From the NCBI GenBank assembly GCA_024451685.1, contig JAMXCW010000002.1:75042-107041 (forward strand): a DNA stretch of 32,000 nucleotides, given 5' to 3'. The position numbers and the translations under genes were made by a program. Positions 3,390 through 18,615 of the stretch are shown here, piece by piece (the stretch's first letter is position 1; every line of letters begins with the position of its first letter). The stretch is from Candidatus Bathyanammoxibius amoris (GTDB lineage: Bacteria > Planctomycetota > Brocadiia > Brocadiales > Bathyanammoxibiaceae). Under the pieces are notes generated by a model. It searched no databases. It saw only the letters and a list, made by a program, of their open reading frames with translations, and was not told the origin of the DNA.

Positions 3390-3662
3390 TTGAACGTAGA
3401 AGAGATTGAAAAGGAAGTGACGTCCATTGTTGCGGAAGTAACGGAGCTAGAGAGGGACGAGATTTGGAACAAGAGAGACGCCAATTTCTTTAAGGAACTA
3501 GAGATAGACTCCCTTTTAGCCCTGGAGATATTAGCGCTTATTGAAAAGAAGTTCAAGATTCAAATACCAGAAGAAAAGTTGGTAGATATAACATCTTTGA
3601 CCGCTACCATTAACATGACCAAAGATGTGCTGGCCGAGAGCGGAAGGCTGCAGGAAGCTTAG
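3390..3662 (+). CDS. acyl carrier protein, dedicated (amxACP-like)
   Basis: 90 aa. Phosphopantetheine attachment motif LEIDSLLALEI. TTG start with AAGGAGGGGA 4-13 nt upstream. An FF dipeptide (ANFFKELEIDSL) sits where E. coli AcpP has FV. Confidence 0.9.
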   Translation: MNVEEIEKEVTSIVAEVTELERDEIWNKRDANFFKELEIDSLLALEILALIEKKFKIQIPEEKLVDITSLTATINMTKDVLAESGRLQEA

Positions 3663-3697
3663 GCCCAAGAGGCTTGGCCAGAGGGGCCTACAAGACC

Positions 3698-4153
3698 ATG
3701 GATTTCGAGGAGGTAAAGAAGCTCGTCCCGCAAAGGTATCCCTTCCTATTCATAGATAAAGTTGTTGAATTAGAGGAGGGGAAGAGAATCGTCTGCCTCA
3801 AAAATGTTTCTGCGAACGAACCTTTCTTCGTCGGACACTTTCCGGAATACGCCATAATGCCCGGCGTCCTTACCTTGGAAGCCCTGGCCCAGGCATCCAT
3901 AATACTCTTCAAAAAAAGCTTCAAGCAGGACGACAGCCCGGACGCGGTCTTCCTGCTGGCCTCCGCAAAAGTAACCTTTGTAAAGCCTGTCTTCCCCGGG
4001 GATCAACTATACCTGGAGATAGACATAGAAAAGGTTATCTCTAATGCCGCCATTGTGAGTGGCATCGCAAGGGTCGGGGAAAACACAGTCGCCAAGACCA
4101 CTTTGACCTTCGCGACGGCCGATAAAACTTCACTTGGTAAAGGTCGGGAGTAG
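3698..4153 (+). CDS. fabZ: 3-hydroxyacyl-ACP dehydratase
   Basis: The hot-dog dehydratase signature [14 protein letters not shown]...[26 protein letters not shown] carries the catalytic His (GHFP) and Glu (LEALAQ). The track ORF begins at TTG 3674, but ATG 3698 gives the canonical N-terminus [16 protein letters not shown]. Confidence 0.9.
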
Positions 4154-4154
4154 C

Positions 4155-5378
4155 ATGAACACGCGTATAGTTATCACCGGTATAGGTGCGATAACTCCTA
4201 TCGGTTCAACCAAGGATGGCGCGTTTTGGGATGCGGTAGTTTCGGGCAAATCCGGTGTTAGCGATGTTACGTGCTTTGACACGTCCCAGCATAAGGTCCA
4301 CAAGGGCTGTGAGGTGAAGGACTTTGACTATCACGACTATACGGATAACGGCTCGGTCGGGAAAACAGGGAGGGGGTCTCAGCTTGCAGTGGCAGCCACC
4401 AAGCTGGCGCTTGAGGATTCAGGACTGAAACTGGACGAGGTAGACCCCGAGAGGATAGGTGTCTCTGTCGGGACGACCGGCGGTGAGATACAAATACTCG
4501 AAAGAATAGACCACCTCAGACACGAAAAGGAAGAGAGCCAGATAGACAGGCAGCTCTTTCTGCTGCACCCGTGCAATAATATACCCGCCAACATAGCCCG
4601 GGCATTCGGGTTTAAAGGCCCCAACACCATAATACCTACCGCATGCGCGGCGGGCAATTATGCAATCGGTTATGCCTGTGACCTCATAAAGATGGGGAGG
4701 GTGGATTTTATGTTTGCTGGCGGTTCCGACCCGTTTTCAAAGGTCGCTTTTACGGGTTTCAGCCGCCTGGCCGCGGTGGCACCGGACGTATGTCGTCCCT
4801 TCGACAAGAACCGCAAAGGGATGTTGATTGGAGAGGGCGCGGGTATGCTGCTGCTGGAGTCGCTCGACGGTGCGCGGGCAAGGGGGGCCGACATTTATGC
4901 GGAGATTATAGGCTACGGTCTGAGTTGCGATGGCTACCACATCACCATTCCCCATCCTGAGGGCCTCGGCGTAATCTCTTGCGTTAAAAAGGCCCTTCAA
5001 GACGCACGGATTAACCCTGAGGACGTGCAGTACATAAGCGCCCACGGCACGGGTACTGTCGCAAACGATAAAGCTGAAACCATTTCCATAAAAAAGGTCT
5101 TCGGTGAACATGCCGGGAACCTCATGGTGAGTTCTATAAAATCCATGATGGGTCACACTATGGGCGCCGCAAGTGCAATAGAGACGATTGCTTGTGCGCT
5201 GATAGTCAAAGAGGATAAAGTCCCGCCAACCATAAACTACGAGACGAAGGACCCTGAATGCGACCTGGACTATGTACCCAACGTTTCAAGAGAGCGCCGC
5301 GTAGACATCGCCCTTAATACCGCGTACGCCTTTGGTGGTAATAACAGTTGCCTGGTGGTCAAGAAGTTTCTTAATTAA
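4155..5378 (+). CDS. beta-ketoacyl-ACP synthase, FabF-like, catalytic triad intact
   Basis: The Cys-His-His triad is present: [48 protein letters not shown] 4155 lies 1 nt after the fabZ stop. The track start at 4134 (TTG) overlaps fabZ. Confidence 0.9.
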
Positions 5379-5459: not shown

Positions 5460-6689
5460 ATGGAAGAAAGAGTAGTAGTTACAGGTATAAGCATTATAAG
5501 CCCGCTCGGCGTGGGCAAGGACAGCTTCTGGGAAAACCTGCAGAACGGTGTCTCCGGCATAAGACCCGTAACCCTTTTTGAAGTGGACGGGTGCAGTTCC
5601 AAGAATGCCGGCGAAATACCGGACTTCGACCCCAGCAAGTTCCTGGGCAAGAAGGGTATCCGGCACTTTGACAGGACGTCGCTGCTGGTAACCGCAGCCT
5701 CAAGTCTCTGCGTCGAGGATGCCGCCGTCAAAGGCGTATATGAAGAGGACGACATGGGCATCGTCCTCGGTTCGACCTTTGGAAGTATCGACAGCATAAG
5801 CAATTTTGACATGGACTCTCTTAACGAGGGGCCTAATTACGTCAACCCGATGGCCTTCCCCAACACGGTCTTAAACGCTCCCGCCAGCCGTGCCTCAATA
5901 TTCTGTCAGGCCAAGGGGCTTAATTCCACCATATCCACGGGTGAATCCAGCGGCGTGGACGCTATTATGTGCGCATCCGACTTCCTCAGGCTCGGCAGGG
6001 TAAAGGCCGTGCTGACTGGCGGTGCGCACGGACTTACGCGGGAAATATTCCACTCTTCCAGCAAGGCCGGTGTGCTGTCGGGGAGCAAGAATACCGGCGG
6101 CAATGAGATTTGTGCTCCTTTCGATAAGAGACGCAACGGCATAGTTTTGGGCGAGGGTGTGGCCATGCTGCTGCTTGAATGTCTGGAGAATGCGCAGGCA
6201 AGAAATGCGAAGATATACGCCGAGATTAAGGGCTATGGCACCAGCTTTAACCCCGGCTGGGACAATAGCGGAGACATGGGCGGCGGTATGAGGGCCAATT
6301 CCCTGGCGCTCGCCAGCGCCGGACTCAAGCCGGAAGATATTTGCCTGATATACGCCAACGCCAATTCAAGCGTAAACGGTGACCGGATGGAGACCGTCGT
6401 TATAAAGGAATCCTTCGGCGACCTCGCAAAGAATATACCCGTAAGCGCGATAAAGTCCATGACCGGAGATTGCCTGGATGCATCAGGGGCGATGCAATGC
6501 GTGGCGTCCGTCATGTCAATCAACACGGGAATTATCCCTCCTACAATCAATTACAAAGAGTCAGACCCCGGCTGCGACCTGGACTACGTGCCAAACAAAA
6601 AGAGGCAGGCACAGATAGACAACGTGCTCGTGGAATCGTTCTCCTATACGGGCAACTGCTCTGCCCTGGTAATGTCCAAATACTCCTAG
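5460..6689 (+). CDS. KS-like protein lacking the whole catalytic triad (chain-length-factor-like partner)
   Basis: Full-length thiolase/KS fold (VVVTGISIISPLG...). Hand alignment to the upstream KS and to E. coli FabF motifs gives Cys->Glu (STISTGESSGVDAI), His->Asn (IYANANSSVNGD) and His->Asp (SAIKSMTGDCLDASGA). Confidence 0.85.
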   Translation: MEERVVVTGISIISPLGVGKDSFWENLQNGVSGIRPVTLFEVDGCSSKNAGEIPDFDPSKFLGKKGIRHFDRTSLLVTAASSLCVEDAAVKGVYEEDDMGIVLGSTFGSIDSISNFDMDSLNEGPNYVNPMAFPNTVLNAPASRASIFCQAKGLNSTISTGESSGVDAIMCASDFLRLGRVKAVLTGGAHGLTREIFHSSSKAGVLSGSKNTGGNEICAPFDKRRNGIVLGEGVAMLLLECLENAQARNAKIYAEIKGYGTSFNPGWDNSGDMGGGMRANSLALASAGLKPEDICLIYANANSSVNGDRMETVVIKESFGDLAKNIPVSAIKSMTGDCLDASGAMQCVASVMSINTGIIPPTINYKESDPGCDLDYVPNKKRQAQIDNVLVESFSYTGNCSALVMSKYS

Positions 6690-6691
6690 AA

Positions 6692-8122
6692 ATGGCGGAC
6701 AACGGCCTTTCTATAAAAAAGAGTGAACTCCGGAGTAAATACGACGTTATCGTAATCGGTGCGGGTATCGGGGGGCTCGTCGCGGGCGCCTTCCTCGCCA
6801 AAAGCGGAAAGAACACACTGGTAGTAGAACAGCACAACATCCCCGGCGGCTACTGCACGTCGTTTAAACGGGGCGGGTTCATCTTTGATTCCGCCGTTCA
6901 CCACATCGGGGGTTGCAGTAAGTACAGTATAGTGGGCAGGTGCCTGAAGGAATTAGGGATAGATATGGAATTCTACAGGCTCGACCCCATGGACACCCTC
7001 ACCTTCCCCTCGTTCTCCATAGACATACCGGCGGACATCGAGACCTACAAGTCCTCCCTGCAACAGAGATACCCGGCCGAGAAGGAAAACGTGTCCAGGT
7101 TCTTCAGTGAATTCATAAAACTCTACCGGGCGATAATAAACGAATCTGAGAAGAGCCCGACACTCGAAAAGTACAGGGGGCGTACTTATCAGGCCATGCT
7201 GGACGACTTCTTCGATGACACGGAGCTGAAGACCGCGCTGGCGGGGCAGTGGGGGTATCTTGGCACGCCCGCGCGCGAGCTTTCAAGCGTCGGCATGTGC
7301 CAGATGCTGGTAAACTATCTCAGAGACGGCGCCTTCTATCCCAAGGGCGGCACTCAAAACTTTGCAGACGCCTTCGCACGATGCATAAGAGACTCAGGCG
7401 GAGACCTGCTCCTGTCTTCAAAGGTGGAAGAGATACTACTCAAGGGCAACCGTGTGGCCGGGGTAAAGCTGGACGGGGGTGACAGGGAGATTGGGGCGGA
7501 GCATATCGTCTCAAATATTGACGCGGGACAGACGTTTTTTGAACTGATAAAGGAAGAGGTTGACCCCGTCTATCTTGAAAGAATGAGAGGGATGAGAGAA
7601 AGCCCTTCATATTTCCTCCTGTATCTCGGCCTTGACCCTGAGGTTGACCTGAGTAGATTCAAAAGAGGCTTTTATCACAGCCCTGACGACCAGTGGAAGT
7701 ATATATCGGCCCCGACAAACGTGGACAAATCCCTGGCCACAAAACTCCGGCAGGAGATAACCGTAGTAGCCACGCTGGATGAAAAGTACGACCAGATTGA
7801 GGACTGGAAGGGCTTGAAAGATAGGTTGACCAGGTGTACAATAAGTTACCTTGAAGATCTTGTGCCAAACCTTAACAGGCACATCGAGGTAGTGGAGGCG
7901 GCCACACCAAAGACCCTCTGGCGGTACACGCTCAACTCAAAGGGGGCCGCGTACGGGTGGGCCGTCACGCTTGAGCAGTCCGGACCGGACAGGCTTGGCA
8001 ATAAAACACCGGTAGGGGGTTTATATCTGGCCGGACATTGGACAAACCCGGGACCAGGCGTCTGCGCCGTTGTGTCCTCGGGTTGGCGCGTGGCAAACAT
8101 GATATTGAGAAACGGGAGATAA
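6692..8122 (+). CDS. FAD-dependent desaturase/oxidoreductase, phytoene desaturase (CrtI)/amine-oxidase family
   Basis: N-terminal dinucleotide fold YDVIVIGAGIGGLVAGAFLAKSGKNTLVVEQHNIPGGY. CrtI-like C-terminus GGLYLAGHWTNPGPGVCAVVSSG. ATG 6692 lies 2 nt after the preceding stop. The track start at 6470 overlaps the KS-like gene and is rejected. Confidence 0.8.
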   Translation: MADNGLSIKKSELRSKYDVIVIGAGIGGLVAGAFLAKSGKNTLVVEQHNIPGGYCTSFKRGGFIFDSAVHHIGGCSKYSIVGRCLKELGIDMEFYRLDPMDTLTFPSFSIDIPADIETYKSSLQQRYPAEKENVSRFFSEFIKLYRAIINESEKSPTLEKYRGRTYQAMLDDFFDDTELKTALAGQWGYLGTPARELSSVGMCQMLVNYLRDGAFYPKGGTQNFADAFARCIRDSGGDLLLSSKVEEILLKGNRVAGVKLDGGDREIGAEHIVSNIDAGQTFFELIKEEVDPVYLERMRGMRESPSYFLLYLGLDPEVDLSRFKRGFYHSPDDQWKYISAPTNVDKSLATKLRQEITVVATLDEKYDQIEDWKGLKDRLTRCTISYLEDLVPNLNRHIEVVEAATPKTLWRYTLNSKGAAYGWAVTLEQSGPDRLGNKTPVGGLYLAGHWTNPGPGVCAVVSSGWRVANMILRNGR

Positions 8123-8127
8123 AGGTT

Positions 8128-9573
8128 ATGAAGAAGATAATGCTGGTAAACCCTCATCCTCCAGGCCGTCACGGTGAGGAGAGCATAAGCGTGATAGTCC
8201 AGATGCCCCTGAATCTGGCCTACATCGCCGCCCTCACGCCGGGCGACGATTGGGAGTTCGATGTAGTTGACGAAAACCTCGAGCTTGCAATGGATGAGAA
8301 TGGAGAGGACATAACCTTTGACCCGCCGGATATAGTCGCGCTTACCGCGCTCACCTATCAGGCTCCCAGGGCATACCAGATAGCCCGGGCCGCCAAGAAA
8401 CACGGCTGTACCACAATAATGGGCGGCATCCACGCCTCCGTGTGTGCGGAAGAGACCCTGCAGTACGTGGACACGGTCGTAACCGGAGAGGCGGAGAACG
8501 TCTGGCCGCAGGTGATAAAGGACTTTGAGAACGGAAAGTTGCAGAGACGCTACGACGGCGGACTCCCCAACCTCTCAGTACTCAAAAATATATATCCCGA
8601 TAGAGAACTTCTGAAGAAAAAGTACGGCTACAAGTTCTCTTCTATAATAACTACTAAAGGCTGTCCCAACCGCTGCGATTTCTGCAGCGTGCCCACCTTC
8701 CAGGGCCAGAAGTTCCGGGAGAGACCGTACGAAGACGTGCTCGACGAGATGGCGGCTACGGACTATAAGGGGCTGATGTTTGCTGAGGACAACTTCTACG
8801 GCCACAGCGACGCCTCCGCGCGGCGCGCCAAACACCTCTTCCAGGGCATGATTGACAGGGGCCTGAAGAAGGACTGGCTCGGCTTTACCGCCCTCAACAT
8901 CTCTCATGACGCCGAGGCCCTCGACCTGATGGCAAAGTCCGGCAACTTCGGTTTTCTCGTCGGCATAGAAAGCACCAACGAAGAGGTGTTGAAGAAAATG
9001 GGTAAGCGGGTGAATTTGAGACTTGGGACCACTAATTATAAAGAATGTATAAGGAAGATACATGATGCGGGTCTCCTCGTCTGGGCCTCGGTGGTATTCG
9101 GCGCCGACGGCGATGGCAAGGATTCGTTCAAGAAGATGGTGGATTTCGTACACGACAGCAAGGTGGACATACTGACCTACGGCCTTGACTGCCCGTTCCC
9201 CAAGACGCCGCTCTTCTACAGGCTCGATTCAGAGAAACGGCTCTTCCGGAGAAATCTGCCGGAGGACTGGGTATATTACGAGACCGCCCATATGGTCCAC
9301 AGGTTCGTTGACATGACCCTGGACGATTTCGTGGACGGCATGCAGTACGTCTACGACCACGTATACGCGGGTGACAACGTCCGCAAGAGGTTCAGGACAA
9401 CCATACAGGAGACCGGCAACCCCCGCAACTCCATGTTCGCCCTCAGGGTGGGTCAGGACTGGGACCAAGTCTTTTTGCAGGTTTTGGACAACCTGCACGA
9501 ACTCCAGGAATCCGGCGATTATTATAAAGACACCTACACCACGCAGGAAAAGACCATCTCCATCCCCGCGTAG
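8128..9573 (+). CDS. B12-binding-domain radical SAM enzyme (paralog 1)
   Basis: Radical SAM cluster motif TTKGCPNRCDFCSVP (CxxxCxxC). N-terminal Rossmann-like B12-binding-type domain (IMLVNPHP...DIVALTALTYQAPRAYQIARAAKKHGCTTIMGGIHAS). ATG 8128 with GGGAGA 9 nt upstream, 5 nt after the desaturase stop. Confidence 0.85.
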   Translation: MKKIMLVNPHPPGRHGEESISVIVQMPLNLAYIAALTPGDDWEFDVVDENLELAMDENGEDITFDPPDIVALTALTYQAPRAYQIARAAKKHGCTTIMGGIHASVCAEETLQYVDTVVTGEAENVWPQVIKDFENGKLQRRYDGGLPNLSVLKNIYPDRELLKKKYGYKFSSIITTKGCPNRCDFCSVPTFQGQKFRERPYEDVLDEMAATDYKGLMFAEDNFYGHSDASARRAKHLFQGMIDRGLKKDWLGFTALNISHDAEALDLMAKSGNFGFLVGIESTNEEVLKKMGKRVNLRLGTTNYKECIRKIHDAGLLVWASVVFGADGDGKDSFKKMVDFVHDSKVDILTYGLDCPFPKTPLFYRLDSEKRLFRRNLPEDWVYYETAHMVHRFVDMTLDDFVDGMQYVYDHVYAGDNVRKRFRTTIQETGNPRNSMFALRVGQDWDQVFLQVLDNLHELQESGDYYKDTYTTQEKTISIPA

Positions 9574-9663: not shown

Positions 9664-10051
9664 ACGAGATTCTTCGCTGCCCCTTCGCTACGCTCAGGGC
9701 TTCGGCTCAGAATGACAACTCGTGGCGTGGTAGACAACGAGGTTTACCTCGTTGATCAACGACCATATCGAAGACTCGCCATGTTGTTGGGCGAGAAGGC
9801 CGTTGTTTACCAACTACGTTACATTACGCCTGAAAAATCTTTTTATGTAGCGTGGTAGCTCGCTGCCACGTTCTACGTTGGAGCAAGCTCCAACGCTACA
9901 TCGATTGTATATGGCCCCATAAATGGGGCAACTACAGTTGAAAGCCGCAGGGCTAAAGCCCTGCGGCACCCATAGATTAGGTAGGGGGCGGGGTGACCCC
10001 GACCCTACAGTGAATTATAACGTGGAGGGCAGCCATAAGGCCTGCCCCTAC
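9664..10051. repeat. array of short GC-rich hairpins, many flanked by GTAG/CTAC (REP/BIME-like)
   Basis: Stem-loops read directly: 9735-9754 (CAACGAGG/CCTCGTTG), 9851-9870 (CGTGG/CCACG), 9876-9895 (CGTTGGAGC/GCTCCAACG), 9914-9929 (GCCCCAT/ATGGGGC), 9944-9967 (GCCGCAGGGC/GCCCTGCGGC), 9981-10008 (GTAGGGGGCGGGG..CCCCGACCCTAC) and 10027-10048 (GGGCAG/CTGCCC). Confidence 0.6.
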
Positions 10052-10054
10052 AAA

Positions 10055-10768
10055 CTATTTGGGCAGGGGAGCGCCGCACCAGGCGCAGAATGTCCACGTG
10101 GCGGAGACCTCCTCCCCACACTTCGCACATGGAGGGGCATTCACCATCGCGTCGAACGGGGTGTGCCACGTGAAGACCGCCTTCTCGTACGGGCCGTCGG
10201 CATTAAGCACCAGGGTCAGCTTGGATTTCTTGTGTGTGTCAATTACAGGCTCGCCCTTTTTATCCTTGTTCGGGAATATCAGGACGTGCATGTTGGCGCC
10301 GCCGGCGTCGCCCTCCGAGGCCAGTATAGTCTTCATTGCCGCAACGGTCGCCGCAACCATGGGGGGCGGGTCGTCTACGGGCCGGATTTTAGAGCCGTCC
10401 GGCGCCAGCAGCACCGCTCTTTTCCGGACTTCGCTTTCACCCGCATACATAGAGGAGCCGTCGGGCTGCATGATGCTGCTCTGGATGACCATGGTGATGT
10501 ACGGCTTAAGGAACCCCATGTCCTGTTCTATGACGTCCCTTGGCTGACGGGTATCGGTAAGACTTGCCTCCACGTAGAAATCGAACGGCATCCACATGGC
10601 AAGCTGTGTAACGTCACCCAGTATCTCTACTTTCAGTATCTCGGTAACAAAGCTGCCGAGGTCGGCATTTGGCTTCGCGCCGGCTCCCTGCTGGGCAGCC
10701 AGGGTCTGGGGGAACGCGGCGACACAGAACAGAACCGCGGCCATAAAAAGAATCCTTGGGGTCTTCAC
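10055..10768 (-). CDS. exported hypothetical protein with C-terminal CxxC...CxxC zinc-ribbon-like tail
   Basis: 237 aa. Signal peptide MKTPRILFMAAVLFCVAAFPQTLAAQQ. GTG start with AAGGAGAG 5 nt upstream. C-terminus CAKCGEEVSATWTFCAWCG. No family recognised. Confidence 0.6.
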   Translation of the reverse strand: MKTPRILFMAAVLFCVAAFPQTLAAQQGAGAKPNADLGSFVTEILKVEILGDVTQLAMWMPFDFYVEASLTDTRQPRDVIEQDMGFLKPYITMVIQSSIMQPDGSSMYAGESEVRKRAVLLAPDGSKIRPVDDPPPMVAATVAAMKTILASEGDAGGANMHVLIFPNKDKKGEPVIDTHKKSKLTLVLNADGPYEKAVFTWHTPFDAMVNAPPCAKCGEEVSATWTFCAWCGAPLPK

Positions 10769-10829
10769 GGTGCTCTCCTTTCAAAAACGTATTACCTTCA
10801 TGTCTGCCAGCGCGGCCGGACGGTGAAGG

Positions 10830-11174
10830 TTATTCTCCCGTTGGGAATATCATCGTATCGAGGTCTTTTACCAGTTGATACATCCTGCGGGCGTCTTGCA
10901 GGGCCTGTTCCTGGTTTACAAGCGGTATTATCTCTATCTTTGTAAACAGGGGGAACAGCGGCAGCTTTGTCACAATCGCCTCTATCTCCGCGTGGTCGTC
11001 CGCGTCAAAGATGGCCGCCGCGCCGCGGCGCCCGGCCAGTTTGCCGCCTGCCAGGACTTTCCCCCTCTTCTTCATCCTCTCGTAGAACTCCCATTCCTTT
11101 ATCAAGAGTTGAAAGAAATCCCTGACCGGCATCTGGTTAATCTTTTCTATCTCTACCTTTACTAGAAATAGCAT
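10830..11174 (-). CDS. muconolactone delta-isomerase-fold (MIase family) protein
   Basis: 114 aa. MLFLVKVEIE...IFDADDHAEIEAIVTKLPLFPLFTKIEIIPL parallels CatC-type muconolactone isomerases as I remember them (MLFxVxM...N..YSIFDV.S.EELH.LL..LPLFPYM.IEV.PL). GAGGTG RBS 7 nt upstream. Confidence 0.6.
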   Translation of the reverse strand: MLFLVKVEIEKINQMPVRDFFQLLIKEWEFYERMKKRGKVLAGGKLAGRRGAAAIFDADDHAEIEAIVTKLPLFPLFTKIEIIPLVNQEQALQDARRMYQLVKDLDTMIFPTGE

Positions 11175-11300: not shown

Positions 11301-12044
11301 TTACATGGCCATGCCGCCGTCTACGGTAATTACTTGACCCGTGATATAACTGGCCTCGTCCGAGGCCAGGAAAGCCACCACGCGGGCCACCTCTTCGGTC
11401 TCGCCGACGCGGCCCAGAGGCACCAGCTTCAACATCTCGTCCAGGTATTTCTGCTCTATCGCTTTAACCATATCCGTCTTAATGAAACCCGGCGCCACCG
11501 CGTTTACCCGCACCCCGCGCCTTGCCACCTCCTTGGCCAGGGCCTTGGTAAAACCAACTATCCCGGCCTTTGAGGAGGAATAGTTGGTCTGTCCCGCCAT
11601 GCCGACAAGCCCGCTGACGGAGCTTATGTTTATTATCGAGCCGCTCCGCTGCTTCATCATGGGCAACACGGCGGCCTTGGTGCAGTTGAACACGCCGTTC
11701 AGGTTGGTATCTATCACGGCCCTCCAGTCCTCTTCCGACATCATCATCAATATCTTGTCCCTGGTTATACCGGCGTTGTTTACCAGGATGTCTACCTTTC
11801 CGAGTTCCTTTATGGCATTGCTAATCATCTCTTTTGACCGGGCAAAGTCCGCGACGTCGCTCTGCACGGAAAACGCCTTTACGCCCAGCTTGCTTATCTC
11901 GCCCTCAAGCTCCTTCGCCTTCTCCACGTTCTTCGCGTAGCTGAAGGCCACGTCCGCGCCGTTTCCGGCAAGCTCAAGGGCTATCGCCCTCCCGATACCC
12001 CTGGTACCACCCGTGACAATAGCCGTCTTCCCTTTTAATGACAT
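11301..12044 (-). CDS. fabG: 3-oxoacyl-ACP reductase
   Basis: 247 aa classical SDR. TGGTRGIGRAIA, NNAGI, the Ser...YSSSK catalytic motif and the C-terminal ITGQVITVDGGMAM typical of FabG. Confidence 0.9.
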   Translation of the reverse strand: MSLKGKTAIVTGGTRGIGRAIALELAGNGADVAFSYAKNVEKAKELEGEISKLGVKAFSVQSDVADFARSKEMISNAIKELGKVDILVNNAGITRDKILMMMSEEDWRAVIDTNLNGVFNCTKAAVLPMMKQRSGSIINISSVSGLVGMAGQTNYSSSKAGIVGFTKALAKEVARRGVRVNAVAPGFIKTDMVKAIEQKYLDEMLKLVPLGRVGETEEVARVVAFLASDEASYITGQVITVDGGMAM

Positions 12045-12128: not shown

Positions 12129-14135
12129 TTATACAGTAAGTCCTATCTTAAAGCCTTCATGGATCGCCTCCATCGCGGTCCTTACCTGCACGCAGTCGCC
12201 GATAGTATATATCTCAGGCACGAGACCGTTAAGGTGTTTATGGAGCGAGTCGTCGGATATGTACCCGGTAGCAATTATCACCGTTTCCGCGGGTATAAAA
12301 GTCTCCCGGCCGTCCTTTTCATACAACACGCCGCTCTCTGGCTCCTCTTTGACTTCCTTTACCTTTACGGTCGTGACGGCCTTTATGCCTGCGCCCTCCA
12401 TCTCCCTTTCCATCACCCAGCGTGTGGATATCCCGAAACCGCCGGCGACTCTCCTCTTCATCTCGAGAATGGTGACGTTCCTGTGGCCCCTTGAGGATTT
12501 TTCCAATGCGGTCGGCAGGTCTATTATATCATTCTTTAGCAAGAACATCGCCACATCCGGTTTCATACTGCCCAGCTTGGCCACGTAGAGGGCCGTCTCA
12601 CTGCCTACCGTCCCGCCGCCTATTATAACAACCTCACGGCCAACCGGCACCCTCCCGTCCAGTACGTCCTTCGCCAGCACGATGTTATTCCCGTTTATCC
12701 CCGGAATCGGCGGGATGGACGGCGTTGAACCAGTTGACAGTATCAGCACGTTCGGTTTTTCCTTCTTGATTATATCCGGGTTTGCCTCAACGCCCAGGAC
12801 GACCTTCACCTTTTCCTTCTTTATCTGTCTTTCCAGATATTTTATAACGTTTACAAACTCCTCGCGGCCAGGGGGCTTGTAGGCATAGTGCAACTGACCC
12901 CCAAGGATTTTTTCTTTCTCATACAGTGTTACGTCATGGCCTCTCAGCGCGGCCACCCGGGCCGCCTCCATTCCTCCGGGACCGCCCCCTACAACAAGGA
13001 TCTTCCTCTTCTTTGCCGCCGGTGTTATGGTATATTCTTTTTCCCTCCCTGCCCTGGGATTGTACAGGCAGGTGACGGCCCTCATGTTCAAGAGTTCATC
13101 AAAGCAGCCCTGGTTGCATGCTATACACGTCCTTATGTCCTCAAGCCTGCCTTCCTTATATTTATTGGGCAGCTCTGGGTCCGCTATGAGCGGTCTGCCG
13201 ATGGATACCAGGTCTGTCTGCCCGTCCCTGAGCAGCTCTTCCGCAACGGTAAGGTCATTTATCCTGACAGCCGCTATTACGGGTATGTCCACGTTTTCTT
13301 TGATGGAGGTTGCCAGAACCACGTAAGCGGTTCTGGGGATTACCATCAGCATTACGGGTACCTTGCTTTCGTGCCACCCCGGCGACACGTGGAAGGCGTC
13401 CACGCCGAGTCCGGCAAGTCTCTGGGCGATTTGTATATTGTCCTTAATCTTCAGACCGCCCTCCATCAGCTCATCCCCGGAGAGTCTAAAGATTACGGGA
13501 AAATCCTCCCCAGCGGTCTCTTTGACGGCCTCTATGGTTTCAACGGCAAAGCGCAGCCTTTTCTCCGGGCTGCCGCCGTACTCGTCGTTTCTTTTATTGC
13601 TTATTGGTGAGAGGAACTGGTTGATGAGGTATCCCATGCCGCCGTGAATCTCTACGGCATCGAAGCCCGCGTCTTTGGCCCTTTTTGCGGCCAGGGCGTA
13701 GTTTTGTATTACCTGTTTTATCTCCGGGATGCTTAAGGCCCTGGACGTGTCTCTGGCCAGTCGTGAGGGCACGCTCGATGCCGATACGGGCTGCATCTTT
13801 GAGAACAGGCTTGAGGCATAACGCCCGCCATGGAGTATCTGGGCAGCGGCCTTTGTGCCGTGACGGTGCATAGCCCCGGTGAATCTGGCGAGTGAGGGGA
13901 TGTAGCGGTCGTCGTCCAGCCCGAGGATGCTCTTCCACGCCTTGCCGTTCTGTTCCGGATAGCACCCGCCGACAACGATGAGCCCCACACCTCCGTCGGC
14001 CCTCTCCGTATAGAAATCAACAAAACGGTCATTGACAAAGCCGCCGGTAGTGAAGCCAAGGTCCATTGCCGTCATCACGAGACGGTTTTCCAGCTGCAAC
14101 GGGCCTATATTTATTGTGTTAAACAGGCTGACCAT
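12129..14135 (-). CDS. FadH-type 2,4-dienoyl-thioester reductase-like flavoprotein (OYE FMN barrel + 4Fe-4S + FAD/NAD(P)H domains)
   Basis: 668 aa. N-terminal OYE-like barrel (GFDAVEIHGGMGYLINQFLSP). Cys motif CIACNQGCFDELLNMRAVTC (Cx2Cx3Cx11C, as in E. coli FadH). C-terminal Rossmann folds ILVVGGGPGGMEAA and VVIIGGGTVGSETA. Confidence 0.85.
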   Translation of the reverse strand: MVSLFNTINIGPLQLENRLVMTAMDLGFTTGGFVNDRFVDFYTERADGGVGLIVVGGCYPEQNGKAWKSILGLDDDRYIPSLARFTGAMHRHGTKAAAQILHGGRYASSLFSKMQPVSASSVPSRLARDTSRALSIPEIKQVIQNYALAAKRAKDAGFDAVEIHGGMGYLINQFLSPISNKRNDEYGGSPEKRLRFAVETIEAVKETAGEDFPVIFRLSGDELMEGGLKIKDNIQIAQRLAGLGVDAFHVSPGWHESKVPVMLMVIPRTAYVVLATSIKENVDIPVIAAVRINDLTVAEELLRDGQTDLVSIGRPLIADPELPNKYKEGRLEDIRTCIACNQGCFDELLNMRAVTCLYNPRAGREKEYTITPAAKKRKILVVGGGPGGMEAARVAALRGHDVTLYEKEKILGGQLHYAYKPPGREEFVNVIKYLERQIKKEKVKVVLGVEANPDIIKKEKPNVLILSTGSTPSIPPIPGINGNNIVLAKDVLDGRVPVGREVVIIGGGTVGSETALYVAKLGSMKPDVAMFLLKNDIIDLPTALEKSSRGHRNVTILEMKRRVAGGFGISTRWVMEREMEGAGIKAVTTVKVKEVKEEPESGVLYEKDGRETFIPAETVIIATGYISDDSLHKHLNGLVPEIYTIGDCVQVRTAMEAIHEGFKIGLTV

Positions 14136-14215: not shown

Positions 14216-15457
14216 TTACATATCACTTTTTTCCACTACGAGGCTGGTGCAGTTTCCATTCAGGTCGAGAGAGTTGACTATTGCCACCTTTATGTCCTGT
14301 TTAAGCTCGTCCCCCAGTACGAAATTCAGCTCGCACTCAGGGTCCGGCACCTTGTAGTTCCTCATCGGAGGGATGGTCGATTTTTCCATGGCCAGCAGGC
14401 AAAAGGCCATTTGCATCGCCCCTGATGCGCCGTAACACTCACCGGTCTGAGACTTTATAGAACTTACCGGTACGTCTCTCAAGCCGTCTCCCAGCAGCGC
14501 TTTAACGGCCCTGGCCTCTATGAGGTCCGTCTGCTTTGAAGAATTACCGTTTGCGCAGATAAGCCCCAAGGAATCCTTTGATTGTCCGGCCTGTTCAAGA
14601 GCCTGCTCCATGGTATTTTTCACTCTCTCTGTCTTTTCTTCCAGGCTGAACCTCCTGGCTCCCATGTAAGCTAGTCCGTGACCGGTGAGCTCCGCATATA
14701 CGCGGGCTCCCCGCCTGCGTGCATATTCCATGTCCTCTATGACAAACACGTAACTGCCCTCACCGAGGATGAAGCCGTTCCTGCGCTTATCAAACGGGGC
14801 GCTTATCTCTGGTTCAGAGTCCTGCGAACCAGCCAGAAGTTTTTGCATAAGAAAGATGATGTAACTGTCGAGCGAGATTTGTTCCACCCCGCCGGCAATG
14901 AGCACATCCACCCTGTTTGTCTGTATCAAGCTAAAGGCGTCGCCGATAGCGTCGGCGCTGGACGTGAATCCTGAGGTAATTGTCCTTGAAGGACCGGTGA
15001 GTTTAAAAAATACTGAAGCAAAGTTTGTAGAGGAATTCAGTGCCACGTCATAGCTGTCCATGGGAAGGAGCTTTTCAGGCCCGCGTTTAAGGATCTCATA
15101 CGTATAATCCGTTGTCTGTGGGTAATTGCCGAGGGCTGAACCTATTACAACGCCCGTGTCATCAGGACAGTGATTGCCGTTCTGGAAGAGTTTAGCGTCT
15201 TCGAGGGCAAGTTTCGTTGCAGACGCAAGAAATTTGGTACCCTTTGTCAGATATTTAAGGCCCTTGTCACCGAGATATTCAGAGGGATTCAGGCCCTTTA
15301 CTTCCGCAGCCAGTTTACAAGGATACCCGGAGACGTCAAGGGACGTGATCGGGGCGATACCGGAATGGCCTCCGGCAAGATTCTTCCAGAATTCCTCATG
15401 CCCAAACCCCAGCGGAGAGATTATACCGATGCCAGTTATTACGGTCCTTTTCTTCAT
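14216..15457 (-). CDS. KS-like protein lacking the whole catalytic triad (second chain-length-factor-like partner)
   Basis: 413 aa KS fold. Cys->Phe (RTITSGFTSSADAIG), His->Asn (ICANGNSSKQTD), His->Glu (SSIKSQTGECYGASGA). Its ATG overlaps the upstream KS stop (ATGA at 15454-15457). Confidence 0.85.
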   Translation of the reverse strand: MKKRTVITGIGIISPLGFGHEEFWKNLAGGHSGIAPITSLDVSGYPCKLAAEVKGLNPSEYLGDKGLKYLTKGTKFLASATKLALEDAKLFQNGNHCPDDTGVVIGSALGNYPQTTDYTYEILKRGPEKLLPMDSYDVALNSSTNFASVFFKLTGPSRTITSGFTSSADAIGDAFSLIQTNRVDVLIAGGVEQISLDSYIIFLMQKLLAGSQDSEPEISAPFDKRRNGFILGEGSYVFVIEDMEYARRRGARVYAELTGHGLAYMGARRFSLEEKTERVKNTMEQALEQAGQSKDSLGLICANGNSSKQTDLIEARAVKALLGDGLRDVPVSSIKSQTGECYGASGAMQMAFCLLAMEKSTIPPMRNYKVPDPECELNFVLGDELKQDIKVAIVNSLDLNGNCTSLVVEKSDM

Positions 15458-16659
15458 ACCCTACCAAAAACAACGCTGGCATTATTACCGCCAAAGGCAA
15501 ACGAGTTATTCAAGGCGAATCTAACCTCTTTGTTTCTTGCCTCATTAGGCACGCAATCCAGGTCGCATTCCGGGTCCTTTGTCTCGTAGTTTATCGTCGG
15601 GGGGAGTTCTCCAAACTTTATGGCCAGGCAGCACACGGCAGACTCAATGGCGCTTGCCGCTCCCATGGTGTGGCCGATCATTGACTTTACCGAGCTGCAT
15701 GGAATCTGCGGGGTTCTCTCTTTAAAGACCGTCTTGACTGCAAGGGTTTCCATTTTGTCATTCAGCGGCGTGCCTGTGCCGTGCGCGCTTATATAATCTA
15801 CGTCCTCATACGAAAGCTTGGCGCATCCCAGTGCCGCCTCCATTGCCCTGATAGCGCCTTCCCCTTTAGGATGGGGAGCGGTCATGTGAAAACCGTCGCT
15901 GCTGAGACCGTAGCCCTTTACTTCAGCATATGTGTTCGCGCCGCGTTTTGTTGCATGCTCCAGAGTCTCAAGTATCAGCATCCCCGCGCCGGCCCCCACG
16001 ACCAGACCCTGTCTGTTTTTATCAAACGGCTGGCATTTCTCCGGCGCCAGGGCCTTCAGGTTGTGGAAGTGCGTAAATTCAGTTTGCGGTACTATGTCGC
16101 TTCCGCCGACTACCATTGCGTTAACCTTTCCTTCCTGCAGCATGTCAAAGGCCCAGCACAGGGCATGGTTTCCGGAGGAGCAGGCGTTAATCAGAATGAT
16201 ATTGGGACCTTCTACGTGAAAATCTTCTGCCAGCTGAGTCGATAAGGTCGCCGGGGGATAACGCAGGACCACGTCCAGACTAAACCCGGAGGCCTTGTCA
16301 CGGGGGTTGTCCCTTAGCTTATGCTCAAAGGCGGAGAGTTCTCCGGCAAGCGTTCCTATGGACATACCGACTTTATCTATTTCCAGGCCCTTGTAGTCAA
16401 ATATGCCGCTATCTTGAAGCGCCTCCCTGGTAGCTACGTAAAGACAATCGTAAACAGTATATCCGTTCTTGGATGGTGGGGTACCGTTGGAGTTCAGACT
16501 TTTTAACTCACAGGCACGGTGAACCTTGTATCTGGAGGTGTCAAAGGTGGTAATTTCCGAGACACCATCCCGGCCATTAAGCATTGCTTCCCAGGATTTT
16601 TTTCTGTCCGAACCAATGGCCGTTACCAAGCCGAGGCCTGTCACAACTACTCTGGGCAT
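15454..16659 (-). CDS. beta-ketoacyl-ACP synthase, FabF-like, catalytic triad intact (second copy)
   Basis: 401 aa. IILINACSSGNHAL (Cys), [15 protein letters not shown] (His), [16 protein letters not shown] (His). Starts 16 nt after the radical SAM stop. Confidence 0.9.
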   Translation of the reverse strand: MPRVVVTGLGLVTAIGSDRKKSWEAMLNGRDGVSEITTFDTSRYKVHRACELKSLNSNGTPPSKNGYTVYDCLYVATREALQDSGIFDYKGLEIDKVGMSIGTLAGELSAFEHKLRDNPRDKASGFSLDVVLRYPPATLSTQLAEDFHVEGPNIILINACSSGNHALCWAFDMLQEGKVNAMVVGGSDIVPQTEFTHFHNLKALAPEKCQPFDKNRQGLVVGAGAGMLILETLEHATKRGANTYAEVKGYGLSSDGFHMTAPHPKGEGAIRAMEAALGCAKLSYEDVDYISAHGTGTPLNDKMETLAVKTVFKERTPQIPCSSVKSMIGHTMGAASAIESAVCCLAIKFGELPPTINYETKDPECDLDCVPNEARNKEVRFALNNSFAFGGNNASVVFGRV

Positions 16660-16675
16660 GATATGGATATCTCTT

Positions 16676-18157
16676 CTAAAAGACCTTCGTGGTTATCAGG
16701 CTGGAGGATTCGTTAAATCTTTCCTTCTTCCCTATCCGGCCCAGGGCCTCCTGGTACTTCCCGGAGGCCTCCAATTTTTGCAGGTTTTCTATGAAATGTG
16801 CGATGACTTCCCGCCAGTCCCAGTTGACCTTGAGGGCAAACATGGCGGAGTTGTTATTGTTCAAGGCCTGCCTCGAGTTTTGGAATCTCGCCCTGATGGA
16901 CTCGGTGGACCATAGCCGCTGCTGCAGGCGCTGTAACCCCTCGGTAAGCTCCTGAATGGAGAGATTGTTAAGGATGTGGACAAGGTGGTGAGACGTGTAA
17001 TATACCCAATCCTCGGGGAAGTTCGTACGGAAAAGCCTGTTACCACCCTCCAGACGTTTGTAAAGGGGGGTATTGATAAACGGGCAAAGTATGCCGCATG
17101 TCATTATGTCAAGGTTGGAACCCAGCACAAATTCCGATACCTCGTCAAAGGTGTCTATAGTGTCGGCATCATTGCCAAATATCACGGTACCCCAGACGGC
17201 TATGCCGTGTTTGCGAATGTTCTTAATGGCTTCATAATATTTATCTATGGTTATCCTCAGGTTGACGTGTTTGTTCATCGATTCCAGGGCTTCTTTATTC
17301 AGTGACTCTATCCCTATTAGCACCCCCACACAACCACTCCTGACCATGTAATCCAGGGTCTCGTCGTCCCTGAATATATTAAGTGACGTAAAACCGAACC
17401 AGTTCTGGTAGATGCCCCTTTCCACCATCTCTTTAAAGAGATTCCTGACCCTGTCGTTTGATTTTTTACTATGGCCGTAAAAATTCTCGTCGGTGAGCAC
17501 CAGCCCCCGGAACTGGCCCTGAATAGCCTCCATCTCGTCAAGCACGTCCTCTACGGGCCTCTCACGGTATTTGCGGCCCTGGGATTGAGGGACGGAGCAA
17601 AACTCACAACTGAAGGGGCACCCGGCAGATGTGGTTATTCCGGAGTAACGGTATTTATATTTCTTCTTCAGAAATTCCCTGTCGGGGTAAACTAACTTCA
17701 GATTTTCCAGCGGTGTAAGGCCGCCTTCGTAAAATTTCTGAAGACGTCCCTGTTCAAAATCCGACAGCAGCTTGTCCCAGATGGAAACGGCCTCTCTCTG
17801 TACGACACAATCTACGTGCTCGGCCACCTCATTGGGATAAATAGTCGCATGCACACCGCCCATTATTACCGGGATTTCCCTCTTCCGGCAGGCAGCGGCG
17901 ATCTGATAGGCACGCGGGGCCTGATAACTGACGGACGTTATCCCCACCAGATCCGCTCCCGGGAAACACAGGTTGCCGTTTTCGTCTACGGCGCTCTCCT
18001 CGGTTTCGTCTATTACGTCAACCTCCCAGCTATCCGGGGTCAGAGATACCAGGTAGCCCAGGTTTACAGGCATCTGGGCCAACACAGAGACGTTCTCCTC
18101 ACCGACGTTTCCTATCGGATGGGGATTTATAAGCACAAGTTTTCTTTTGCTTATCAT
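16676..18157 (-). CDS. B12-binding-domain radical SAM enzyme (paralog 2)
   Basis: 493 aa, colinear with the 8128-9573 product. Shared blocks include NPHP, YQAPRAYQIA, IMGG(I/V)HA, YPDRE(L/F)LKKKY and the CxxxCxxC motif TTSAGCPFSCEFCSVP. I estimate roughly half the residues are identical, by eye. Confidence 0.85.
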   Translation of the reverse strand: MISKRKLVLINPHPIGNVGEENVSVLAQMPVNLGYLVSLTPDSWEVDVIDETEESAVDENGNLCFPGADLVGITSVSYQAPRAYQIAAACRKREIPVIMGGVHATIYPNEVAEHVDCVVQREAVSIWDKLLSDFEQGRLQKFYEGGLTPLENLKLVYPDREFLKKKYKYRYSGITTSAGCPFSCEFCSVPQSQGRKYRERPVEDVLDEMEAIQGQFRGLVLTDENFYGHSKKSNDRVRNLFKEMVERGIYQNWFGFTSLNIFRDDETLDYMVRSGCVGVLIGIESLNKEALESMNKHVNLRITIDKYYEAIKNIRKHGIAVWGTVIFGNDADTIDTFDEVSEFVLGSNLDIMTCGILCPFINTPLYKRLEGGNRLFRTNFPEDWVYYTSHHLVHILNNLSIQELTEGLQRLQQRLWSTESIRARFQNSRQALNNNNSAMFALKVNWDWREVIAHFIENLQKLEASGKYQEALGRIGKKERFNESSSLITTKVF

Positions 18158-18249: not shown

Positions 18250-18615
18250 TCAATACGCGCCAGTCACCAATAATACCTGCCCTATGGCGTGGTCTTTTGT
18301 GTGGGTTATTGATACGTCCCATGAGCCGACACCCTTTTCCTCGGCGAGTTCCTTCGCCCTCCCATAAAGTTTAAGGTAAGGACGTCCCGAGGAATCATTG
18401 AGCAACTCAATATCTGTCCACTTCATCCCCGTACCCAGGGCCTTTACCACCGCCTCTTTTACGGCAAACCTGGCGGCCAGGTGTTCAAACTTATTCCTCT
18501 TAGAGAGGCTGTACTCTACCTCCCTGGGGGTGTATATGCGGTCAATAAAGGATTCGTAACGGGTAAAAAGGTCTTTAATTCTTCCAACTTCCACCAGGTC
18601 GATGCCTATGTACAC
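18250..18615 (-). CDS. acpS: holo-ACP synthase (4'-phosphopantetheinyl transferase)
   Basis: 121 aa. IGIDLVEVGRI, RFAVKEAVVKALG and WDVSITHTKDHA are typical AcpS blocks. GTG start with GGGGAG 8 nt upstream. Confidence 0.9.
   Translation of the reverse strand: MYIGIDLVEVGRIKDLFTRYESFIDRIYTPREVEYSLSKRNKFEHLAARFAVKEAVVKALGTGMKWTDIELLNDSSGRPYLKLYGRAKELAEEKGVGSWDVSITHTKDHAIGQVLLVTGAY

Follow-up and report, generated by a model that had tools for sequence, protein, structure and literature searches.

How ladderane lipids are synthesised has been an open question for 20 years. In the foremost candidate gene cluster, just two enzymes lie outside fatty acid synthesis, one of them being the phytoene dehydrogenase homolog (PDH) of anammox bacteria. 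Fatty acid synthesis clusters containing radical S-adenosylmethionine (rSAM) and phytoene-dehydrogenase-like genes were described in Kuenenia, Desulfotalea, Geobacter and Pelobacter by Rattray et al. in 2009, who proposed that anaerobic desaturation feeds ladderane formation (PMC2649909). In Kuenenia stuttgartiensis, KustE3603–3608 encodes an acyl carrier protein (ACP), FabZ, a ketosynthase (KS), a dead KS, PDH and an rSAM enzyme; the Barends group uses the name Cluster I for this set. The desaturase idea was restated by Javidpour in 2016 (PMC4790861), by Dietl in 2023 (PMC10139942) and in a 2026 review (PMC13459092), and PDH is still termed uncharacterised in Dietl 2023, a 2026 preprint and the 2026 review. 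Here we analyze the PDH gene in a 32,000-nucleotide stretch of DNA from Candidatus Bathyanammoxibius amoris (GenBank assembly GCA_024451685.1, contig JAMXCW010000002.1, positions 75,042 to 107,041 of the forward strand), the whole of which we call the window. A first-pass annotation of the window suggested that this gene desaturates an acyl chain for the neighboring rSAM enzyme, an idea that is already known, having been in print since Rattray 2009. We assign the gene as the counterpart of kuste3607, and our comparisons point to ACP-bound chains as its probable substrates.

The dehydratase amxFabZ acts only on amxACP-bound substrates and prefers C6–C8 chains (Dietl et al., PMC10139942). The active KS is structurally nearest to the polyene-forming ishigamide KS, and the published amxFabF-mut counterpart of the dead KS pairs with the active KS as a heterodimer (preprint, bioRxiv 10.64898/2026.05.19.726425). 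Neither kuste3607 nor kuste3336, a second phytoene-dehydrogenase-like gene, can replace CrtI: in E. coli they gave zero lycopene from phytoene (Javidpour 2016, PMC4790861). Fusion to MBP in the protocol of Javidpour yielded soluble kuste3607. The phytoene-dehydrogenase homologs IkaB and PtmB2 of polycyclic tetramate macrolactam (PTM) pathways cyclise polyenes reductively (PMC5361873, PMC11724479). CrtI itself depends on O2 or a quinone to accept electrons; when its FAD is reduced and conditions are anoxic, it works as an isomerase (PMC3382138). The first-pass statement that CrtI-type enzymes work without O2 is therefore just partly right.

Results

The reading frame at 6692–8122 on the plus strand is open throughout, encoding 476 amino acids plus a stop, with zero internal stops. 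Homologs of 475–477 amino acids align across 100% of its length, which supports the chosen start codon. The ATG at 6692 follows the TAG of the upstream KS (6687–6689) after a gap of 2 nt, and the TAA at 8120–8122 is separated by 5 nt from the ATG of the rSAM gene at 8128. The motifs DVIVIGAGIGGL (residues 18–29), EQHNIPGGY (46–54) and GLYLAGHWTNPGPGV (443–457) are all present in the translation. Length, gaps and motifs thus agree with those reported in the first-pass annotation.

The host genome (2.07 Mb, 95% complete) carries hydrazine synthase alpha (HZS_alpha, 70 bits), its nearest named records are Brocadiales, and the closest homologs are from Brocadiales, Scalindua and related metagenome-assembled genomes (MAGs); it therefore belongs to a deep-branching anammox lineage. 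The order ACP-FabZ-KS-deadKS-PDH-rSAM is unchanged in every sufficiently long anammox locus (~70 loci, all named genera), including those of Kuenenia, Brocadia, Jettenia, Scalindua, Anammoxibacter and Loosdrechtia, and the order in the window is identical to that of Kuenenia kuste3603–3608 as tabulated in PMC4790861. The PDH of the window is 55–82% identical to the PDHs of named anammox genera, and the gene directly after PDH in these loci is always a kuste3608-type rSAM (69–90% identity). By identity and gene order, the gene is orthologous to kuste3607, the Cluster I “phytoene dehydrogenase homolog”. The window brings no new gene type; within anammox bacteria this is an ordinary ortholog of low novelty.

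Of 61 Brocadiales genomes, 57 yielded a PDH ortholog, and each of the 21 sampled genera was represented among them. Three of the four genomes without a match have truncations at contig ends. The fourth, G013, from the same family as the window genome, is an assembly of 10 contigs at 94% completeness that encodes hydrazine synthase; no ortholog of PDH or of its rSAM partner was found in it, its best rSAM matches being just 53% and 49% identical. In this genome, either Cluster I was naturally lost or the assembly has a gap.

PDH is the sole CrtI-like gene of the host genome. A second CrtI-like paralog, of the kuste3336 type, is ~27–33% identical to PDH, limited to some genomes of one anammox family and absent from the host. 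It lies after rSAM-FabG-FabZ. Copies are at G004:C1:3735642-3737069, G018:C1:859479-860939, G054:C1:230626-232058 and G012:C81:17112-17720, and those of G018, G054 and G012 contain in-frame stop codons. Judged from these copies, the kuste3336 type is dispensable or decaying, unlike the kuste3607 type. Among the CrtI-like enzymes of anammox bacteria, the kuste3607-type PDH is the one universal member; the kuste3336 type is sporadic and sometimes broken.

By Pfam, PDH belongs to the FAD Rossmann families (Amino_oxidase PF01593, 80.8 bits against a cut-off of 19.8; PF13450, 55.3 bits). Among solved structures, those closest to it in sequence are 4dgk CrtI (E 3.4e-24), 3ka7 and 4rep CrtD, and a Foldseek search with its AlphaFold model (pLDDT 75.5) was led by 4rep, 3ka7 and 4dgk at probability 1.00. 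The N-terminal GxGxxG FAD Rossmann fold, the C-terminal FAD motif and the overall amine-oxidase/CrtI superfamily fold are present. Profile, sequence and fold together bear out the first-pass view of a CrtI-superfamily FAD enzyme inside a dedicated ACP/FabZ/KS operon.

Within this superfamily, PDH falls far below every curated NCBIfam equivalog cut-off (CrtD, CrtISO, CrtO, HpnE). It scores 158.9 bits on TIGR02734 crtI_fam, where the cut-off is 238.1 and true enzymes drawn from annotated plasmid carotenoid clusters score 771 (Pantoea CrtI), 542 (Thermus CrtI), 429 (Staphylococcus CrtN) and 326 (CrtP). Scores on carot_isom (TIGR02730; 148.6 against 586.9) and HpnE (TIGR03467; 45.3 against 283) are also too low, and the CrtI, CrtD and carotenoid-isomerase models score PDH about equally. 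Where CrtI has a GPT(V/I) motif after the Rossmann fold, PDH has an invariant AVHHIGGC.

We built a FastTree phylogeny of 102 sequences (anammox PDHs, non-anammox PDHs, kuste3336-type paralogs, 50%-identity representatives and references), which gives local support values only and contains no named CrtISO, RetSat, TIGR02733-CrtD or PTM sequences. CrtI, CrtN, CrtP and related C30 enzymes formed one clade (support 99), outside a 94-row clade (support 93) that includes PDH. The anammox PDHs formed a clade (support 91) nested in a 23-row clade (support 97), and the kuste3336-type paralogs grouped in a separate clade (support 96). Ten representatives of neighboring clades were scored, and none exceeded any curated cut-off; at E≤1e-30, the PDH branch numbers over 1,400 representatives. 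PDH is thus best placed, by profile and phylogeny, as a FAD enzyme of a large uncharacterised, functionally unnamed branch of the CrtI/CrtISO superfamily.

The window contains two convergent lipid loci side by side. Locus A, on the plus strand, runs ACP, FabZ, KS, dead KS, PDH flavoenzyme, B12-rSAM. Locus B, on the minus strand, runs AcpS, B12-rSAM, KS, dead KS, FadH-like reductase, FabG-type short-chain dehydrogenase/reductase, muconolactone-isomerase-fold (MIase-fold) protein. Their features are as follows.

3390–3662 (+): dedicated acyl carrier protein (amxACP type), Cluster I gene 1; Pfam PP-binding, 48.6 bits; leads the six-gene order in the ~70 anammox loci.
3674–4153 (+): FabZ-type 3-hydroxyacyl-ACP dehydratase (amxFabZ type); FabA, 89.6 bits; NF000582 FabZ, 147.5 bits against a cut-off of 113; syntenic in all loci.
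4134–5378 (+): active ketosynthase (amxFabF2 type); ketoacyl-synt N and C domains; TACAAG, HGTGT and GH intact.
5460–6689 (+): catalytically dead ketosynthase (amxFabF-mut, chain-length-factor-like partner); KS fold; Cys to Glu, His to Asn/Ala, His to Asp.
6692–8122 (+): CrtI-superfamily FAD flavoenzyme, ortholog of kuste3607 (PDH), assigned by translation, Pfam, NCBIfam, synteny, fold and tree.
8128–9573 (+): cobalamin-binding radical SAM enzyme (kuste3608 type); B12-binding and Radical_SAM domains.
11301–12044 (-): FabG-type ketoreductase, locus B; adh_short_C2, 243 bits, and KR domain.
12129–14135 (-): FadH-like (OYE and FAD/NAD domains) 2,4-dienoyl-reductase-type protein, locus B; Oxidored_FMN, 256 bits; Pyr_redox_2, 114 bits.
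14216–16659 (-): second dead-KS/KS pair (kuste2805/2804 type), locus B; KS domains.
16676–18157 (-): second B12 radical SAM enzyme (kuste2803 type), locus B; Radical_SAM and B12-binding domains.
18250–18615 (-): AcpS-type phosphopantetheinyl transferase, first gene of locus B; Pfam ACPS, 68.9 bits.

Both neighbors of PDH are as first annotated: the active-site columns of the upstream KS show a dead enzyme (Cys to Glu, HGTGT to ANANSS, GH to GD), and the domains of the downstream protein are those of an rSAM. Between the convergent loci lies an open reading frame (ORF) of 340 amino acids (9923–10945, +) with zero Pfam or NCBIfam matches; because its 3' end overlaps the region of the minus-strand MIase-fold gene, it may not be a real gene.

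The complete unit also occurs outside anammox bacteria. A pattern scan over 185,579 species genomes found four non-anammox MAG loci with the whole ACP-FabZ-KS-deadKS-PDH-rSAM unit (L069:4844-15260, L083:4810-15300, L070:4912-11717 and L071:4681-10978), from taxa labelled in the record titles as Spirochaetales, Planctomycetota PNC17, Acidobacteriota and Blastocatellia. Their PDHs are 42–48% and their rSAMs 55–63% identical to those of the window, and they share the active/dead KS pattern. In L069 and L083, another rSAM gene, another KS/dead-KS pair and FabG follow within the operon, the genes of loci A and B being fused there into one co-linear unit, and L070 consists of the six genes plus FabG; in all three, a FabG homolog ends the operon. 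GC contents of 50–69%, two contigs of 382 and 479 kb, and the lack of hydrazine synthase in the carrier genomes, save for one weak partial match in G064, speak against these being mis-binned anammox contigs. Their existence runs counter to the published claim that ladderane producers alone carry the cluster (“encountered exclusively”, PMC10139942); antiSMASH “ladderane-type” clusters in other phyla have been reported before. These clusters also offer alternative source organisms for the proteins.

More distant relatives were collected in a metagenome scan with a sister-clade alignment, and non-anammox loci were counted if they had at least 3 kb of flank. A KS gene lay within 6 kb at 8 of the 15 loci whose CrtI-like protein scored at least 220 bits to PDH, versus 3 of 38 more distant ones (Fisher p ~8e-4, among related, non-independent loci). 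An rSAM_A-like gene was found within 6 kb at none of the 8 KS-adjoining non-anammox loci. L176 (2426–13349) encodes a methyltransferase, FabG, dead KS, FabZ, KS, ACP and a CrtI-like enzyme, followed by two histidine kinases. L123 (2458–14488) has FabG, dead KS, ACP, FabZ, KS, a KS-like protein and a CrtI-like enzyme, followed by a seven-transmembrane histidine kinase, and L106 has two KS/dead-KS pairs, FabZ, ACP, a CrtI-like enzyme and FabG. No enoyl-reductase family appeared among the Pfam-scanned ORFs of L106, L176 and L123, a scan that covered only part of their ORFs. Because histidine kinases follow the L176 and L123 cassettes and L176 includes a methyltransferase, these two look like systems that make and sense a small lipid signal, not ones that make a membrane lipid. 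Judged from these neighborhoods, the flavoenzyme travels with a dedicated ACP, KS/dead-KS pair, dehydratase and ketoreductase, the radical SAM enzyme being an add-on.

A further CrtI-like oxidoreductase, on the Bacillus cereus plasmid pVKMB-370_1 (L090:4938-6416), is 31% identical to PDH (225 bits), nearer than any true CrtI. It lies directly upstream of two nonribosomal peptide synthetase (NRPS) genes and near a phosphopantetheinyl transferase, which is another carrier-protein-pathway context. Two more homologs on plasmids, H8 and H50, were examined as candidate PTM clusters and proved not to be such.

Discussion

We consider it quite probable, from gene content and conservation, that PDH acts on ACP-bound enoyl or polyenoyl chains. 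The KS/dead-KS pair, together with a FabG-type reductase and the dedicated FabZ, would make a 2-enoyl or conjugated polyenoyl thioester on the operon’s ACP; PDH would then alter the saturation or geometry of C=C bonds in the tethered chain, and in anammox bacteria its product would pass to the adjacent B12 radical SAM enzyme. Flavin dehydrogenation requires an activated C–H, allylic or alpha to a thioester, and the middle of a saturated chain has no such C–H; extension of an existing enoyl or polyene therefore fits, and attack in the middle of a saturated chain does not. PDH appears tied to the KS/ACP core because four non-anammox loci carry the whole unit and because KS genes lie near 8 of the 15 closer relatives. 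Since some relatives adjoin KS/dead-KS/FabZ/ACP/FabG cores that lack rSAM, the flavoenzyme likely works on an ACP-bound enoyl or polyenoyl intermediate and not on a finished fatty acid. The same substrate is suggested by the need of amxFabZ for amxACP-bound C6–C8 substrates (Dietl et al.) and by the resemblance of the active KS to the polyene-forming ishigamide KS.

Superfamily precedents for the chemistry span oxidative desaturases, reduced-FAD isomerases (PMC3382138) and reductive polyene cyclases (PMC5361873, PMC11724479). Reductive or redox-neutral chemistry, by a saturase, a cis-trans isomerase or a reductive cyclase, has in our view a nearly even chance of being correct; the published idea, an oxidative desaturation by which conjugation is extended, has a chance somewhat below even; and chemistry of some other kind would be a surprise. 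A version of the desaturase idea in which PDH, independently of O2, puts several double bonds into a long, finished, saturated acyl chain and rSAM cyclises the resulting polyunsaturated fatty acid has been proposed in PMC2649909, PMC4790861 and PMC13459092. The CrtI-family fold and FAD site, the position directly before rSAM and the ability of CrtI to take quinones instead of O2 are all consistent with it, yet we regard it as improbable: polyunsaturated fatty acids were seen neither in anammox bacteria nor on expression of the genes in E. coli, the isotope labelling pattern of the ladderane moiety misfits long-chain desaturation, and amxFabZ strongly prefers C6–C8 (all PMC10139942). The rSAM-free KS/ACP cores beside PDH relatives and the unactivated C–H bonds of a saturated chain speak against it as well.

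The reductive or redox-neutral possibilities on enoyl- or polyenoyl-ACP, in which PDH takes the place of the missing enoyl reductase as a saturase, acts as a cis-trans isomerase, or cyclises polyenes reductively as IkaB and PtmB2 do, draw on what these operons encode. Cluster I and its non-anammox versions supply KS/dead KS, dehydratase, ACP and ketoreductase (the last in L069, L070 and L083) and no gene matching other proteins of the window, although no search was aimed at an enoyl reductase; the L106, L176 and L123 cores are of like make-up, and there too an enoyl reductase was not directly searched for. The ishigamide-like KS (preprint), a family that holds both isomerases and phytoene-dehydrogenase homologs forming carbocycles from polyenes, and the about equal scores of PDH on the CrtI, CrtD and carotenoid-isomerase models point the same way. 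Polyene intermediates, however, are unreported in anammox bacteria (PMC10139942), and the FadH-like reductase of locus B could already reduce dienoyl intermediates. Overall, we see this as a tenable explanation with the balance of probability somewhat against it.

Several points weigh against our assignment of PDH to ACP-bound chains. The structural model is of low confidence exactly at the invariant motifs, residues 56–72 and 407–431, and the neighborhood counts were drawn from related, non-independent loci. In the multiple alignment, the loop with the proposed CrtI catalytic residues R148, D149 and R152 is deleted in the PDH clade, so the CrtI mechanism is not transferable residue by residue; a pairwise HMMER alignment, by contrast, pairs R148 with R146. 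Expression of kuste3603–3608 caused zero detectable change in E. coli fatty acids (PMC4790861), a null result that may reflect protein insolubility, and a part for Cluster I in making ladderanes is itself still a hypothesis (PMC10139942).

An isoprenoid function, either as a carotenoid desaturase or as an HpnE-like squalene-forming reductase whose place in the operon is coincidental, is what the public annotation “phytoene desaturase family protein” would imply, and the host does have a squalene-hopene cyclase and zero known squalene synthase, leaving the squalene supply step unexplained (PMC7306690). A profile search for squalene/phytoene synthase (PF00494), the substrate-forming enzyme, found none in the 95%-complete host genome; in the Brocadiales set, one of 61 genomes had a match over cut-off and 60 had none. 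This absence agrees with Santana-Molina et al. 2020 (PMC7306690). The first-pass annotation had argued against a carotenoid role from the lack of crtB/crtE nearby, and that argument stands, because PF00494 is absent genome-wide, crtB and crtM included, and PDH lies apart from bona fide carotenoid desaturases, outside the CrtI/CrtN/CrtP clade and below the crtI_fam cut-off. PDH also fails the CrtD, CrtISO and HpnE cut-offs, lies outside the HpnE clade and sits in a six-gene order that is invariant across the order, kuste3607 does not act on phytoene (PMC4790861), and non-anammox genomes with the cluster do carry PF00494 genes. A carotenoid role therefore seems very unlikely; the isoprenoid explanation as a whole is already largely refuted, and we give it hardly any weight.

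The squalene-hopene cyclase of the host lies outside the window (G000:C27:64971-65927, 480 bits). The pattern of a cyclase present and a squalene/phytoene synthase absent is already in print (PMC7306690). An HpnE role for PDH was considered and rejected on its HpnE score (45.3 bits against 283), the absence of PF00494 and its place outside the HpnE clade. Likewise, Cluster I does not replace the PF00494 genes as a stand-in for the missing squalene synthase, because the non-anammox carriers G061, G062 and G064 have PF00494; G061 and G063 lack the cyclase.

Three comparative results (the universality of the kuste3607 type, the complete unit outside anammox bacteria and the rSAM-free cores) narrow the question of what PDH does and point to its substrates. 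They also permit a broader proposal, which we put forward as doubtful: that PDH is not a chain desaturase but the dedicated enoyl-/polyenoyl-ACP flavoenzyme, be it reductive cyclase, isomerase or saturase, of a widespread, enoyl-reductase-free KS/dead-KS/FabZ/ACP module. If this were true, finding complete PDH-rSAM clusters in MAGs of Acidobacteriota, Spirochaetales and Planctomycetota would leave two options: strained lipids akin to ladderanes are also made outside anammox bacteria, or Cluster I has a product other than the ladderane rings.

Among known systems, Kuenenia Cluster I is the closest. Its kuste3607 occupies the matching place in a matching six-gene operon, shares a clade with the PDH of the window and those of all anammox genera, has the identical proposed role in the literature and, in the Kuenenia-genus orthologs L040 and L051, is 56–58% identical. 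In contrast to Kuenenia, locus A (kuste3603–3608 type) here adjoins locus B (kuste2802–2805 type plus FadH-like, FabG and MIase-fold genes) convergently, and the host is a deep-branching organism with a small genome (2.07 Mb) and no kuste3336-type paralog. The L106, L123 and L176 cassettes have in common with Cluster I a core of dedicated ACP, FabZ, active and dead KS and a CrtI-like enzyme 33–39% identical to PDH; unlike anammox Cluster I, they have no adjacent B12 radical SAM.

CrtI of Pantoea ananatis (PDB 4dgk), the best solved relative by sequence, shares with PDH the fold and the N- and C-terminal FAD-binding motifs. The two are ~25% identical, and PDH differs in its sub-threshold crtI_fam score, in AVHHIGGC for GPT(V/I), in the deleted R148/D149/R152 loop, in a host without phytoene synthase and in the inactivity of kuste3607 on phytoene (PMC4790861). 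The PTM homologs IkaB, PtmB2 and HSAF OX1-3, which we compared by description, are CrtI-superfamily enzymes that form carbocycles from polyketide-derived polyenes (PMC5361873, PMC11724479), and they are the nearest precedent for a possible action of a CrtI-like enzyme ahead of ring formation. Their substrates are free tetramate polyenes from iterative polyketide synthase (PKS)/NRPS enzymes, not ACP-bound, and their products are 5- and 6-membered rings; the neighborhood of PDH is a type II KS/ACP system, whereas the PTM cyclases pair with PKS/NRPS.

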